Below are positions 35,457 to 58,900 of a stretch of 64,000 bases of DNA, piece by piece (within the stretch, counting starts at the first letter, position 1; each line of letters opens with the position of its first letter). The translations under genes and the position numbers were made by a program. Source of the stretch: Lophium mytilinum (taxonomy: Eukaryota); the NCBI GenBank assembly GCA_010093605.1, contig MU004184.1, forward strand, positions 1,498,801 to 1,562,800. Direction: 5' to 3'. The notes beneath the pieces are model-generated. The model was not told the origin of the DNA. It searched no databases and saw only the letters and a list, made by a program, of their open reading frames with translations.

Positions 35457-37374
35457 TTAGGTTCCCATGTAGGTGGAAGGGTCGACACCGGCCTCTGGAA
35501 ATTCTCTGATGATTTTGTCAGCGTGATCCTTGGTGTCCTAGGGGTCTACTTACTCGAGAGAAACAGCGAAGCGCTTCTCGATGGACTTCAGAACCTCCTC
35601 ATCTTCGGCGGTGGCGACGAAGGAGATACTGAGACCCTTGGTGCCAAAGCGGCCAGCACGTCCAACACGATGTAGATACGAGTCGGAGTCGTTCGGGAGA
35701 TCGTAGTTGATAGCGAGGTTGATGCGCTCGATGTCGATTCCACGGCCGAACACGTCGGTGGCGACGCAGATACGCTTGTTAAACTCTTTGAATTCCTTGT
35801 AGCGCTTGATACTTCTCAACAATTAGCTGACTGTACACCGATATGAGAAGGAATAGACGTACCGCTCTTCTTGACTAACACCAGAATGAACGGCGATGCT
35901 GGGGAAGTTGCACTCGCGGAGCAATTTGTCGAGTTCAGTGGCGCGCATGGTGCTCTTTACGAAGATGATGACCTGGTTGAACTCCAAGGTGTCAAGGAGG
36001 TCGTTTAGCTTGCGATTCTTCTCGCCTTCGCCCAGCTTGATGTAGTATTGCTGGAGGCCGTGGAGAGTGAGCTTCTCCTGATTGTCGATGTAAATCTCAA
36101 GAGGATTCTGCATGAACTTCTTGCAGACGGGACGGATGTCCTCAGAGAGAGTTGCGCTGAACATCATTACCTGCTTCTGCTGAGGAGTCGCGCGGAAGAT
36201 CTCTTGCACATCACGGCGCATGTCTTTCGAGTGATGTTAGCATAGTCCATCGAAGAATTTGGAAGGGATAGGGTGAGCGCACCAATTTGATCGAGCATCT
36301 TGTCGCATTCATCGAGAACGAAACGCTGGATATTACCCAGGCGCAACTTCTTCTCGCGGACGAGGGCGTTCAGGCGGCCAGGAGTGGCAACGATGATGTG
36401 CGGGTGTTGGTCCTTGTTCGCAAGCATATCGATGTCCTTCTGCATGGGAGTACCACCGTAGAATACGGCGGTCTTCACTTCCGGCATGTATTTGCTGAAG
36501 CGAGCGTACTCGTTCTTGATTTGGTAGGCCAACTCGCGGGTATGGCACATAACAAGAACGGAGGTTTCTCCGGCCACAGGTTCAATCTGCTGCAGCGTCG
36601 CGAGGACGAAGACTGCGGTCTTGCCTAGACCGGATTTGGCCTGGCAAACGACATCTGTTCCGAGGATGGCCTGGGGGATGCAGGCTTGCTGGACTGTACA
36701 GAGAACCGAGAAGTTAGACAAGATTCCAAAAGTTGATAACAAGAAGCAATTAGGTGTCGCGTCCGTCCATCAAGAGTCTTCAAAGGTGTGCCGGTCCAGA
36801 GAAAGCCTTGCAACTCAAATCCTCCTCAACATCTCAATATAACCACTATATCCTCCCTCCACAACCTGCACCATAGTACAAGGCTGTGCCCACAGCCCCG
36901 GAAGTCCTCCTCGTCACACTCTCAAGCTCGGGTTTACACGAGAATGAGGGATATCGACTCGATGTTCGAAGAGCGAAAACGCTCTGGGCCAGCGCTGCAG
37001 TCGAAATACAGCGTGGCGCACCATTCCATGGCGCTCTTGTGACTTCTCCGGGGCCTTTGTCGGGACTTTTTTATATATATGGACCGGAGACTCGTTGCGT
37101 AGATGGACGGACGCGTCGGGGGGGATATTGGGGAATGGTAAGACTAACCCTCCGAAGGATGTTCGAATCCGCAATCGGTGATCGCGCGTAGGAGCTCCGG
37201 CTTTAGAAGGAAATCGCGAAAGCCGGTCGTGTGGATTCCGACATAGCTGCCCTTGGCGTCGGCAGCAGTGTCGGCGACCTTCTTGTCGCCAGTGGCAGCC
37301 GCACCGTTGGTGGGCAGATCGGTCTGTTGCAGTTCGTCGTCCGAATAGTCGATGAGATCTTCTTCGTGAGACAT
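35457..37374 (-). CDS. SUB2: DEAD/DECD-box RNA helicase Sub2/UAP56; 5 exons
   Basis: [73 protein letters not shown]. The last exon ends [15 protein letters not shown]. Confidence 0.97.
36694..37148 (-). other. 455-nt highly self-complementary first intron of SUB2 (candidate structured cis-regulatory or intronic RNA)
   Basis: gttagt donor at 37148, ctaac branch and tacag acceptor at 36694. Nested complementary blocks: 37102-37115/36758-36771 (14 bp perfect), 37088-37093/36774-36779, 37080-37087/36791-36798, 37041-37054/36895-36906. Confidence 0.7.
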
Positions 37375-37815
37375 CTTGGCGGTTCGATCGAGTTCGATAC
37401 TACAAGATTCAACGGTGGCCGGAAGGCGAACGAGCGGGACGCTGTGGTTGGCGTCGAACGACCGAGGGTGAGGGGCTCAGTGAGCAGGCTGGCGGACGAT
37501 GCACACAAGGCGGGGTCGACCGAGAGATACGGTCTGATAGCTGAGGTGAAAGAGTTAGTAACTTGACGCAAGTGTGCTGCGCAGTTGCTGGTGGCGAGGT
37601 TGACGGCGACGGTGTACGAGGCGTGGAGGAGGAAAGTAGGACGCGAGCAGAGATGAAGTTGAAGAAGGCGGCCGCGATTGACGGTGCCAAGCCGCGCTAG
37701 TGCTAGTGCCCACACGTGATGCGGCTGAGTCAACGCCCGCTATTATTCTAATACTTTCTACCCACGCCATTAGCAAACGGTCCACGAGGAATTCATTGAC
37801 CAGGCACAGATTCAG

Positions 37816-38400
37816 ATGGCTAAGACAAAGGAGCCAAAAGGCCGGAAGAACATTCCAAACAAGCATCTTCACGCCCGCGTCTCATATCTCTACCAAGCAG
37901 CCTCATACCTCTCGCTTCAGACTCCAGACAGCCAGCACAAAGAGATCAAAGAAAGGAGTCGGCCCCAAGAAGGGGATGCACTCAATACCACCGCGTCATC
38001 AACCAAACTTTCTGAAGAGAGCGAGACAGGGCACGAAGAACACACTCAACATACGACTAAAAAATCCCCACAATCTGGACTGGCGCTCTTCCTAGGATCC
38101 CAACTCCGATCTGTCTCGCAGAAAGGCCAAGTCCGACTCTCTCGGGACCTCAAACGATCCATCTGCAAATCCTGCAATGCTTTTCTTGTTCCTGGTCGCA
38201 ATTCCACAACATCTATGGAGAACACCAGCCGAAATGGAAAAAAGCCATGGGCGGACGTCCTCGTGATCGAGTGTCAAACTTGCGGGTCTAAGAAGCGATT
38301 CCCCGTAGGTAGCAAATGCCAGGCCAGAAAGTCAGAGCGGGTGAGCATCAAATCAAGCACAAGGGACGCGGATGAGCCAATGATTGTGGATGGATCTTGA
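37816..38400 (+). CDS. RPR2: RNase P subunit Rpr2/Rpp21 family
   Basis: NKHLHARVSYLYQAASYL, LRSVSQKGQVRLSRDLKRSICKSC..LVPG, and VLVIECQTCGSKKRFP zinc ribbon. Confidence 0.9.
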   Translation: MAKTKEPKGRKNIPNKHLHARVSYLYQAASYLSLQTPDSQHKEIKERSRPQEGDALNTTASSTKLSEESETGHEEHTQHTTKKSPQSGLALFLGSQLRSVSQKGQVRLSRDLKRSICKSCNAFLVPGRNSTTSMENTSRNGKKPWADVLVIECQTCGSKKRFPVGSKCQARKSERVSIKSSTRDADEPMIVDGS

Positions 38401-54059: not shown

Positions 54060-54660
54060 GTGGCGTGTATTTCGATATATAGGGTGGCTTGATGGACGGT
54101 CTGACGAGGACAGCTAAACTTAGGAGGGCCATTGGTATGCCTACTTAGGACGCTCTGACTTCTGGGTTCGTTAGGCGCCTTGAATCTGGCACTACTCGGG
54201 TGCAAGCGAGGAAAGGATTAGCAATGAGGGCTGGTTATTTCAATCTCATTCTTCAAATCGTCAACGCTACCAATTGATCTTCGACTTGTTCTTCCCAACG
54301 ACCCATGTCTCATACGCTGTGCATACCAAGTACCTCAGCCATTGTCAACATATACCATTCTGATTACGGAGCTATGGCAATAGCATCTTGAGAGATAAGC
54401 AAGTATTCCTTTCGGGGTCATTTATGTCGTCGTTATGTTATCTTCTTGCAAAATCATGAAGGGAAATAATGGTCCCCGTACCAATGCTTTGATTGGTTCG
54501 ATAGGAAGAGTCATTCTTACAAGGGGTCGTGCTTCCGCCAAGGCCGCATAGCTCCGCCTGCAGCAACGTCATTGGGAGCTCCAACGTCGAACCTTGAAGA
54601 AGCAGCTTTGCTTCTGTCTTCAACGACCAAGCCATCAATTCATCATCCAACCCCGACAAA

Positions 54661-55932: not shown

Positions 55933-58900
55933 ATGGAGTACAGCACGAGGCCGCTGGCATTACCCCCCGCAAACCACCCTTGTCTCATCTCCACCGACCT
56001 GGGCAAGCGTGCGCCCCGATCGATCGGCTTGCCGCCATACCCGCCCGTCATCGTCCGTAGCGACAGAGCTGCTGCTGTCAAGGACTTTGCGTCGCGCTGC
56101 AAGCAAAAGTACCCCGACACCTGTCGCTATGTCTACCCGGGATGTCAGACCAAAGATCTCTTCGACGACTACGACATCCACGTCGAAGAAGGCAAGTTCC
56201 TTGACGAGGTGATTCGATACCTGGCCGCCGAGAACATAGAGCAAGTCCACATCTTCTGTTACAAATGGAGCGAGGCCAACCGTGACCGTGTCCTGGAAGT
56301 CGCGCAAATATGGCACGATAACCCCGCAAACCCTCTCGAGATCGTGGACGCGTGCGGGCTGTTCCAACATGAGGATATCCACATCTATGGCCGCGAGTTC
56401 CTCTGGCATGCGCTGAACGAGATGAAGGCCTCTCTTATAAAGGTCGCTGAATCTCAGGCAGCAGCTAGACTCAAGCAAGAGCAAGAAGCGGACAGAACCC
56501 CCAATCAGGTGCCTGCAGCTGCAGCTCCAGCATCGAGCTACCCTCCACAGCAAGACCCTCAACTACGGGGCGGCCATCTGTCAGATAGCGCGCCGCTCGC
56601 ACATGCTGATCATGTCCCTTCCCGTAAGTTCCTGCCCTTCAAAGCTCTCACACAGGCCTTCCAGCGGCGGTCGTTCACTAACTTCGAGCTTACAGAACTT
56701 GCCTATCAAAAGCGTGGTAAGGGCGGGGAACTTCCTCGAGCCCCGATGCGTCAACAACCCGCGAATCCCGATGTGAGGCGCATACTCTCGGCCGAACAGC
56801 CTATGCCTAGCGATACAACAGCATCGATGCGATCGGAGATAAACGTGCAGCGACCTATAACTACACCTCAACAGCCCGGCGCAATGAGCTTGCCACATAC
56901 CCCGACTTTCCGGACAGCATTTCTCAATGCCCCGCCAGGAGCCGCTACGCAACTGTCTCACCCTCCGAATGCGCATACGCGTCAACATTCTGGCGGAAAT
57001 GCTGAGAACATGGGTCCACGTGGTCCCGTTTCCCATCATCGAGTCCGTCAGACATCTAGTGGTGTCCCTAATGCGGCCCAGTCGCCCCGATATCCCCACC
57101 CTGTAGAGGCTGTCAAGATGCAAGGGCAGTCGCTCAGACCAACACCATCACAGAACCATCCGAGCATGGCGATCTCGCCATCGTACGCAACGCACGGGCT
57201 CTACGGCGCAGCGCAATTCTACCAAGCAGCACCTATGGGATTACAGGTCCATCCATCTTCGCAGATGATGATGAATCCAAATATGATGCCTGGAATCCCC
57301 TATGACGCGATGCCGGTTGGCCCCCATGGGCAAATTGTGTACCAGATCGCGGACGCCACCAACGTCCAGCCCCCCAATAGCTCTCTCGTTCCCATAAACA
57401 CGAATCAAGCCTATTACCAACAGGGCGCCACAGTAGTCCAAGCAGTCCATACGAAGCAGCCTCAGCTGTTTGACCCTTATGGCGACGCCAATCCCGGCTT
57501 CGCCCAGATGCCTCGGGGCAAAGGGAAGGGCAAAAATAGCTTTTCAGGAAATCCTAACAAGGGTCGAAAGTTCTCGTCCGGCTCGTACAGCCGTGGAGGT
57601 CAGGGTCAATACACAGGAGATGGTGGGTACCAGCAGAACGCCAACTACCCGGGTACAGTCCCTTACGGCGCAAACCAACCTGGAGGTAACCTTCAAAACC
57701 AAACTCAGCAAGTCTTTCGAGGGCCGCGCAATCAGGAGTCACAAGGTCATTCAGGCCAATGGTCAGCGAACCACGGAAGTAGGCATCCATCTGGATCGGG
57801 ACCCCAAGCCATGGAGCCGTTCCCTGCCTTCGAAAACCAGCAACAGCAATTCCAGGCTCCAACTTTCTCTGGGCAACGCATGCCTCCAAGTCAGCCGTCA
57901 AAATCCCGTCACTCTGACTCGCGACCCTCATTCGGCAGCAATCCAGCTGATGGGGTCTCAAGCCAGGGATACGGAGGCCGGATGGGCCCTAATTGTGGGG
58001 AAGACTGGATTGGTCCTGATGCAATGCACATCAGACAGGTTTGGGTTCACGGATTTCAAGTCCACGACAATGCTGCAGCAGGGTTGGCAAAATGGTTTGA
58101 GGAGAAGGTTGGAAGTTCTGTAGTTCGGGTGGATATGAGGACAGACAAGAACAGCACGAATTACGCATACGTTCAGTAAGTTCCCCGCTAGAGCGAGATA
58201 ACTCTACTAGAGTGCTAACTCGTTTCTACAGTTTTAACACCAGAAACGACGCCGAAAAAGCCCTGAGCTTGAATGCCAAAATCTACGAGAACCGGCCCCT
58301 ATACATCAAGGTGCCACTAAAGTTCTACGAACCTGACACGCGTCCTTTCCAACAGGAAGCCGGCTCAGGACACAACAAATCTCGACGTACAAGCAACGCT
58401 TATAGCACCAGCGGCTTTAACCCAGCCTTTCAAGGACGTCCGTATGGCTTTAGCTCTCCGAAGATCGAACGGCCACAGCGTCAATCATCTCAAGATCCGA
58501 CTCCGAACAAGAAACCTGGCAAGCATGGCGGTCAACCATCTGTCACTCCTACCTATTCTCCCCAGGACGCCAGGAGCGACTTGAATCGGCAGCCGAGCCA
58601 AGAGAACTTTGCCGGTAGGGGCAGCCCCGAGATGAAGAAAGGGAAGAAGTCAGCCAGGACTTCGCCGAAAAAGCTGAAGCAAGAAGAGGTTGGAGACATG
58701 TTAGGTCGCGCCAGTCAGACCCAGTCGTCGAGCCCTGTCGAAGATGGAAAGGTGAAGTCCGAAGTTACTGCTCGGGAGCCCAGCGTTGCTCCAAGCCAGG
58801 CGACCTCCTTACTGGACTCTGATAGTCCTCCACAAACATCTGCTACTGCTCCTGATAACATCGCGGACACGGAGCTCAAAGTTGAGACAGCTAGCGCGGA

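Follow-up and report, generated by a model that had tools for sequence, protein, structure and literature searches.

A zipper-type stem conserved in the first intron of fungal SUB2, a candidate control point of its expression

The closest described counterparts of the element reported here, a long-range stem (P1) in the first intron of the SUB2/UAP56 helicase gene, are the zipper stems described for RPS17B and other long introns of Saccharomyces cerevisiae. For these, limits of at least 6 base pairs (bp), at least 10 nucleotides (nt) and at least 20 nt, with a total linker of 42-85 nt, have been given (Rangan et al. 2025, PMC12350175); the linker limit comes from modelling of the S. cerevisiae A complex. 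In the stretch analysed, a 64,000-nt window of contig MU004184.1 of Lophium mytilinum, P1 falls within all of these limits (14 bp, 33 nt, 43 nt and 76 nt). It differs from the yeast stems, however, in being found in filamentous fungi, where introns are normally about 50-100 nt long, in having arms that are kept in sequence over at least six classes, in the linkers of most SUB2 orthologues, which at 89-136 nt lie beyond the yeast maximum of 85 nt, and in that it encloses further conserved helices and accompanies a conserved weak donor. We consider it rather probable that the first SUB2 intron is structured and of ancient origin, with a zipper-type clamp, and that it serves as a control point of SUB2 expression.

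Three other systems offer partial parallels. In RPL7B intron 1, a zipper stem is a splicing enhancer that is shut off by a protein-bound alternative structure (Granas et al., bioRxiv 10.1101/2025.03.14.643126 / PMC12311795). As there, a weak splicing signal in SUB2 would be offset by a zipper stem, making splicing tunable; yet the weak signal is the branch point in RPL7B and the donor in SUB2, and, in contrast to the mutually exclusive structure bound by a ribosomal protein in RPL7B, the SUB2 pairing tests brought up neither an alternative structure nor a binding partner. The DEAD element of the plant DRH1/RH46 genes is reported to be a conserved pre-mRNA stem that senses its own helicase and directs splicing to non-coding forms (Burgardt et al., bioRxiv 10.64898/2026.01.23.701338), and the discussion of the same paper notes that DEAD-box enzymes efficiently unwind 10-15 bp. 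Both elements are conserved stems in the pre-mRNA of a DEAD-box helicase, and opening by the gene's own product has been proposed for the plant one. However, the latter belongs to a DDX5-like gene of another kingdom, and its local hairpin, about 20 bp long, masks an alternative 3' splice site; its feedback has been demonstrated, whereas feedback in SUB2 is suggested by analogy only, the SUB2 clamp is long-range, and a likeness in sequence is not to be expected. Finally, YRA1 of S. cerevisiae is autoregulated through its intron (PMC2864733). Like SUB2, it is a TREX/mRNA-export gene with an unusually long intron that contains regulatory elements, and its unspliced RNA is degraded; unlike SUB2, it is a different gene with different elements, its decay proceeds in the cytoplasm via Edc3 and Mex67, and no conserved clamp is seen in the beginning of the abstract of that account.

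A literature search found no paper describing the SUB2 intron 1 clamp. In two fungal RNA-structure screens, the words helicase, SUB2 and UAP56 are absent from the main texts and from three supplements of PMC5640933; the supplement of PMC8216456, which was not covered, might list the element. The SUB2 clamp thus looks to be an undescribed element.

SUB2 intron 1 and the stem P1 in the window

SUB2/UAP56 is a minus-strand gene of the window, and its exon 2 encodes the DEAD domain (PF00270, E 4e-31) and matches Sub2 of two named Dothideomycetes at 100% identity. A single contig of the run X3 spans all four SUB2 introns in spliced form with GT..AG ends, and at the intron 1 joint (36693/37149) it skips exactly 455 nt, again with GT..AG on the minus strand. 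The identical joint is carried by contigs of the runs X4 and X11, confirming the long first intron put forward in the initial annotation; the remaining three introns, from the contig joints, measure only 59, 51 and 48 nt. X3 and X4 were taken as RNA solely from their contigs joined across introns. The parts of the gene and the splicing signals of intron 1 are as follows:

37149..37374, minus strand: SUB2 exon 1, with the ATG at 37374 (from spliced contigs)
36694..37148, minus strand: SUB2 intron 1, a phase 1 intron of 455 nt that separates ..HPSE-G from V-QQ.. (from contig joints)
36283..36693, minus strand: SUB2 exon 2 with the DEAD domain (from spliced contigs and the PF00270 match)
37143..37148, minus strand: 5' splice site GUUAGU, whose +3 base is a pyrimidine (from the sequence)
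37144..37146, minus strand: in-frame TAG read upon retention of intron 1 (from the sequence GAG GGT TAG)
36714..36718, minus strand: branch point CUAAC, its branch A lying at 36714 and the 3' splice site 20 nt further on (from the sequence)

When retained, intron 1 reads GAG GGT TAG, an immediate stop, just as the initial annotation had stated. Contigs that contain the intron do exist: one from X3 runs from intron 1 into exon 2, and one from X4 crosses the 5' splice site. Their depths, which are per-contig figures and not a retention level, are 182.9 against 3135.7 for the spliced contig in X3, and 15.3 against 100.1 in X4. For introns 2-4, no intron-containing contigs were seen in X3, though contigs drop rare variants. 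Retention in RNA, which the initial annotation had suggested looking for, is seen to the extent of these intron-containing contigs; no alternative joint of the source organism occurs among the RNA contigs. As a separate observation, a joint from 36176 to 37149 in X4 skips 972 nt, in a contig that shares only about 80% identity with the window, differing in 61 of 314 letters; judged by this divergence, it most likely represents the SUB2 complementary DNA (cDNA) of another organism rather than exon skipping here. The X3 intron contig ends at 37124, leaving 37125-37148 uncovered and stopping 24 nt short of the 5' splice site; this end adjoins a run of seven C on the transcript strand (37119-37125) and may be an assembly break at the homopolymer. 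Intron 1 was also considered as coding sequence and rejected, the open reading frames inside it being only mechanical ones with alternative start codons, none of them credible.

From the sequence of the intron, it is clear that the two arms of P1, at 36758-36771 and 37102-37115, form a perfect 14-nt inverted repeat, in which an 11-nt core (GUCCGUCCAUC with GAUGGACGGAC) is lengthened to 14 bp in the window. P1 begins 33 nt past the donor and ends 43 nt ahead of the branch A of CTAAC, giving the total linker of 76 nt. Further 8-nt inverted pairs lie at 36791-36798 / 37080-37087 and at 36895-36902 / 37047-37054. The arms and their inward extensions are:

37102..37115, minus strand: 5' arm of P1, CGCGUCCGUCCAUC, with the core GUCCGUCCAUC; intron nt 34-47 (from the inverted repeat and conservation)
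36758..36771, minus strand: 3' arm of P1, GAUGGACGGACGCG, with the core GAUGGACGGAC; intron nt 378-391 (from the inverted repeat and conservation)
37080..37093, minus strand: inward extension of P1, 5' side, GAGUCU + CCGGUCCA (from the fold and inverted pairs)
36774..36798, minus strand: inward extension of P1, 3' side, UGGACCGG ... AGACUC (from the fold and inverted pairs)

The transcript-strand minimum free energy (MFE) fold of the intron has -157.8 kcal/mol (z -2.59), and none of 100 shuffles is equally stable, while the opposite-strand fold reaches a z of only -1.29. This fold contains the perfect outer stem and every one of the nested and local stems that the initial annotation had listed, and the comparison with shuffled sequence that it proposed thus comes out in favour of a stable fold for the window intron. 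The windowed P1 duplex has an energy of -35.5 kcal/mol, which is matched by none of 25 shuffles; the shuffles used for helices and duplexes swap letters under a neighbour constraint and are conservative. The case for P1, nevertheless, rests mainly on its conservation and not on such single-sequence statistics.

A possible second, shorter zipper was noticed by eye. It would join a C-rich tract after the donor (YUCCCCAAG-like) with a conserved G-rich block before the branch point (YUUGGRGAA-like). The first candidate site is intron nt 10-30 (about 37119-37139), and the second lies some 15-25 nt ahead of the branch point (about 36720-36735). Its form in the window would be AUUCC/GGAAU, which is paired in the MFE fold.

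Conservation of P1, the donor and their spacing

SUB2 exon 2 was queried against metagenome contigs, and 80 loci with an exon-2 identity of 77-92% were kept. Exon 1 is not on the contig in 12 of them, and 68 hold both exons. Of these 68, 64 have an intron of 373-703 nt that interrupts the same codon in the same phase, and the other four (L041, L055, L062, L074) are intronless and cDNA-like. Clustering at 90% identity reduced the introns to 43 lineages, including the window. By the nearest named Sub2 protein over 136 residues, an approximate criterion of class, the loci fall near Dothideomycetes (Aureobasidium, Myriangium, Venturia, Vermiconidia), Lecanoromycetes (Stereocaulon), Leotiomycetes (Lachnellula, Bisporella), Sordariomycetes (Staphylotrichum, Bombardia), Eurotiomycetes (Penicillium) and Pezizomycetes (Pyronema, Tuber). 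The comparison of orthologous introns across the Pezizomycotina that the initial annotation had proposed thus shows a long intron in place. The inward extensions of P1 (gagtct/agactc, ccggtcca/tggaccgg) are not kept in sequence in other lineages.

When the 43 introns are aligned plainly with MAFFT (A1), the two arms of P1 are near-invariant, and the interior shows little conservation between classes. An exact 11-nt left core is present in 27 of the 43 lineages and an exact right core in 18, and both cores have at most two mismatches in 34. In those 34 lineages, 369 of 374 core cells pair. Departures from the commonest core pair comprise 13 G-U, 4 compensatory cells, 3 C-A and 2 G-G; the excess of G-U over C-A (13 against 3) favours pairing in the sense RNA. 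The 22 core letters have a mean pairwise identity of 0.931, as ascertained on the 34 anchored lineages, in contrast to 0.375 at the four-fold sites of exon 2, which are saturated and serve as the neutral control. The P1 stem is therefore kept nearly letter for letter over many classes of filamentous fungi, and looks to be an old element.

Pairing itself has also been maintained. A1 was not fitted to any structure, and when the 14 P1 pairs of the window were counted on its 43 sequences, 86.4% of 582 cells paired, against no more than 59.7% with the partner slid. The P1 covariation score was 0.192 compared with 0.140 in shuffles, none of 500 shuffles reaching the former value, and 8 of the 14 pairs changed on both sides. 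Seven further lineages have a long-range stem at the place of P1, four of them varying the same core and three using other sequences. Among the former, L049 and L069 have two adjacent core pairs swapped by compensatory changes, the core of L073 carries a 1-nt insertion, and L047 keeps only the outer half of the core, displaced outward; the latter are the Pezizomycetes-like L022, L024 and L039, with strong helices of -33 to -36.5 kcal/mol, those of L022 and L039 being equalled by none of 25 shuffles. Altogether, a clamp occupies the orthologous place in 41 of the 43 lineages. The contiguous P1 helices measure 12-19 bp, and the exact 11-mer of the arms occurs in 45 of the 80 loci, solely at the two arm positions.

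The donor of intron 1 is GTYAGT in all 65 introns (34 GTCAGT and 31 GTTAGT), whereas in the same genes the intron 2 donor has A at +3 in 33 cases, G in 6, T in 2 and never C. Because of this difference, the +3 pyrimidine is a conserved property of intron 1 itself. The TCTRAC branch motif is likewise kept among the aligned orthologous introns. In the orthologues, the median spacing is 52 nt from donor to core, 49.5 nt from core to branch A and 72 nt from core to 3' splice site, and the interior enclosed by P1 varies from 199 to 526 nt, never falling below 199 nt. Between classes, conservation is strongest for P1, for the donor and for the distances that separate P1 from the splice sites.

Inner helices and the enclosed domain

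Two helices inside P1 also have counterparts in other lineages; conserved and covarying orthologues, for which the initial annotation had proposed a test, were found for the outer stem, for the P2 helix and for the cgctgta/tgcagcg hairpin, here P3. Their positions in the window are:

37041..37054, minus strand: 5' arm of P2, GCCCCGGA(GA)AGUC; intron nt 95-108 (from the fold and inverted pairs)
36895..36906, minus strand: 3' arm of P2, GACUUCCGGGGC; intron nt 243-254, including the conserved GAGACUUC block
36984..37022, minus strand: P3 hairpin with the conserved loop UUUCGAC (covariance model match of 36.8 bits, E 3.3e-06)

P2 (gccccgga(ga)agtc/gacttccggggc) extends over about 20-25 bp in 17 of the 43 representatives, with duplex energies of -29 to -43 kcal/mol. 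Its proximal part (GAAGUCUC/GAGACUUC) is conserved, and its distal part is class-specific yet complementary, that is, it covaries. For P3, whose UUUCGAC loop is conserved, 7 of 11 pairs change on both sides among 14 sequences, and the score of 0.443 exceeds both the 0.275 of shuffles (reached by none of 500) and the values of at most 0.163 obtained when slid. The covariance model of P3 matches 28 of 81 sources, always on the sense strand inside SUB2 intron 1, with no other match in 387 kb at E<=1; the hairpin is confined to some lineages. P1, P2 and P3 are all recovered by RNAalifold on eight sequences. As a side observation, the Penicillium-like L078 and L080 share their own 18-bp helix inside P1 (TCTGCAGRCGAYATGAGG / CCTCATGTCGTCTGYAGA; intron nt about 109-135 and 322-418), and a long inner helix seems to be general even without the P2 sequence motif.

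Searches of Rfam gave no match at E<=1 in the window interval 36400-37500 and none at the gathering score in six orthologous loci, and no conserved C/D or H/ACA boxes were seen by eye in A1. An intron-hosted snoRNA is not supported on these grounds, and neither, the interior being poorly conserved across classes, is the excised snoRNA-like RNA that the initial annotation had offered as its alternative. On the whole, that annotation's interpretation is partly supported.

A splicing model and its rivals

Sub2/UAP56 couples splicing to mRNA export and, to our knowledge, the control of its level in the cell is poorly understood. Once P1 had formed, intron 1, with 5-10 times the length of the neighbouring introns, would show its ends to the spliceosome at about the ordinary spacing of a short fungal intron, and the spliceosome could then pair the weak donor (GUYAGU) with the branch site, P1 acting as a structural splicing enhancer in the manner of a yeast zipper stem. 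Without P1, intron 1 would stay in, and the immediate stop would make the transcript unproductive; because retention has this consequence, P1 formation is the likely control point of SUB2 expression. By analogy with the described zipper stems, then, P1 would promote splicing and its formation would be regulated, and splicing that depends on a weak signal backed by a structural enhancer would be tunable, as in the RPL7B design. A clamp kept letter for letter despite saturated synonymous sites, together with a weak donor and a fixed spacing, points to a specific and testable control element. It would extend the zipper-stem idea from budding yeast to short-intron fungi, and it is a candidate for a family of structured intron RNA not represented in Rfam 15.

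Several points weigh against the clamp as a control point. Its putative role in splicing is read from sequence and structure. The 14-bp helix is, on its own, only marginally unusual, since a contiguous helix of at least 14 (G-U allowed) arises in 6 of 100 shuffles of the window intron. Whole-intron folding energy is a weak statistic, and over the family it lies only modestly below that of shuffles (43 introns: sense mean z -1.70 with 19 of 43 below -2, antisense -1.21, Wilcoxon p 0.079). The 76-nt linker of the window is within the yeast range of 42-85 nt, but only 2 of 29 representatives, taking the longest helix as P1, have a linker of 85 nt or less, and the rest have 89-136 nt. Contig depths cannot gauge retention, and only spliced joints mark the runs as RNA. 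Two lineages, L045 and L079, have long introns with no clamp beyond chance (equalled by 5 of 25 and 2 of 25 shuffles, respectively). Moreover, simple pairing leaves the invariant arms unexplained, given the free covariation of P2 and P3; this difference hints at a sequence-specific reader or second partner, though neither was found. As for the two exceptional lineages themselves, L045 is Orbilia-like and the nearest named relative of L079 is Lipomyces at 85%; their introns are 646 and 373 nt long with the donors GTCAGT and GTTAGT, and the long intron with its weak donor may be older than the clamp.

As a special case of the control-point reading, P1 could be a sensor of the cell's TREX helicase activity, a proposal that we regard as possible but somewhat doubtful. 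Sub2, or co-transcriptional loading of TREX, would open or prevent the 11-17-bp clamp, so that excess helicase would lower the splicing of its own weak-donor intron and the stop-containing RNA would be degraded, closing a negative feedback loop. Transcription of the GUCCGUCCAUC arm precedes that of its partner by about 340 nt (200-530 nt in relatives), an interval in which free Sub2, TREX or a sequence-specific partner could decide whether the clamp forms and thereby set splicing against retention with the stop codon. The size of P1 (core 11 bp, helices 12-19 bp) is mostly inside the 10-15 bp range of DEAD-box enzymes, the plant DRH1 stem provides a precedent for sensing one's own helicase (bioRxiv 10.64898/2026.01.23.701338), and the conserved weak donor, the immediate stop upon retention and the existence of intron-containing RNA contigs are all consistent with it. 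However, Sub2 binding, unwinding and dose response are each hypothetical here, and DEAD-box unwinding is not sequence specific and so would not account for the invariant arms. A conserved alternative pairing between the 3' arm and the 5' splice site is weak and only slightly exceeds the background (on average -9.0 compared with -7.1 kcal/mol; mean rank 0.29), that of the 5' arm with the branch and 3' splice site region is no better than background, and a match between the donor +3 base (C/T) and the branch sequence (CTGAC/CTAAC) across loci was, by eye, not consistent. If such sensing were true, P1 would tentatively be a homeostat for a central mRNA-export helicase that predates the split of the Pezizomycotina classes, and a fungal counterpart of the plant DEAD element in which a long-range clamp replaces the local hairpin.

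The remaining explanations place the function elsewhere or deny it. The interior domain (P2, P3 and lineage-specific helices) might itself be the functional part, as a hosted non-coding RNA, a protein platform or a decay element, with P1 merely closing it. P2 is indeed a long helix in 17 of 43 lineages and covaries by class in its distal part, P3 covaries with a conserved loop in a model that matches only SUB2 intron 1, and the interior never shrinks below 199 nt; but the lack of an Rfam match in the window interval and the six orthologous loci and of conserved snoRNA boxes seen by eye in A1, the restriction of P3 to some lineages and the lack of sequence conservation of the interior across classes make this unlikely. 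Arms kept in sequence rather than drifting by compensation could also be expected of a DNA-level element, an intronic enhancer or inverted protein-binding sites near the promoter region common to SUB2 and the divergent RPR2 gene, which lies 442 bp upstream of the SUB2 start codon. We hold this to be very improbable, since compensatory changes maintain the complementarity of the arms in diverged lineages, G-U is tolerated over C-A by 13 to 3 on the sense strand, and the spacing is fixed to the splice sites and not to the promoter. A chance inverted repeat, or a relic of a miniature inverted-repeat transposon, would agree with the 6 of 100 shuffles that yield a 14-bp helix, and arms with indels between sub-helices resemble decayed terminal repeats. 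Such an origin can hardly be credited in view of the orthologous place of the stem in 41 of 43 lineages, the lack of a second intron copy in the window and of the 11-mer anywhere else in the 80 loci, and the lack of a target-site duplication seen at the arm ends; for the transposon, orthologous placement and the single copy in the window and the 80 loci rule it out.

Elsewhere in the window, one-mismatch copies of the arm 11-mer lie at 54091-54101 (minus strand) and 57247-57257 (plus strand). These two are within chance, which likewise speaks against a dispersed repeat: 1.21 are expected, and 2 of 100 shuffles give at least 4 matches. The divergent gene next to SUB2, at 37816-38397 on the plus strand, encodes an RNase P Rpr2/Rpp21 subunit (PF04032, E 3.1e-25), and SUB2 and this Rpr2-domain gene are two RNA-processing genes with a common upstream region.

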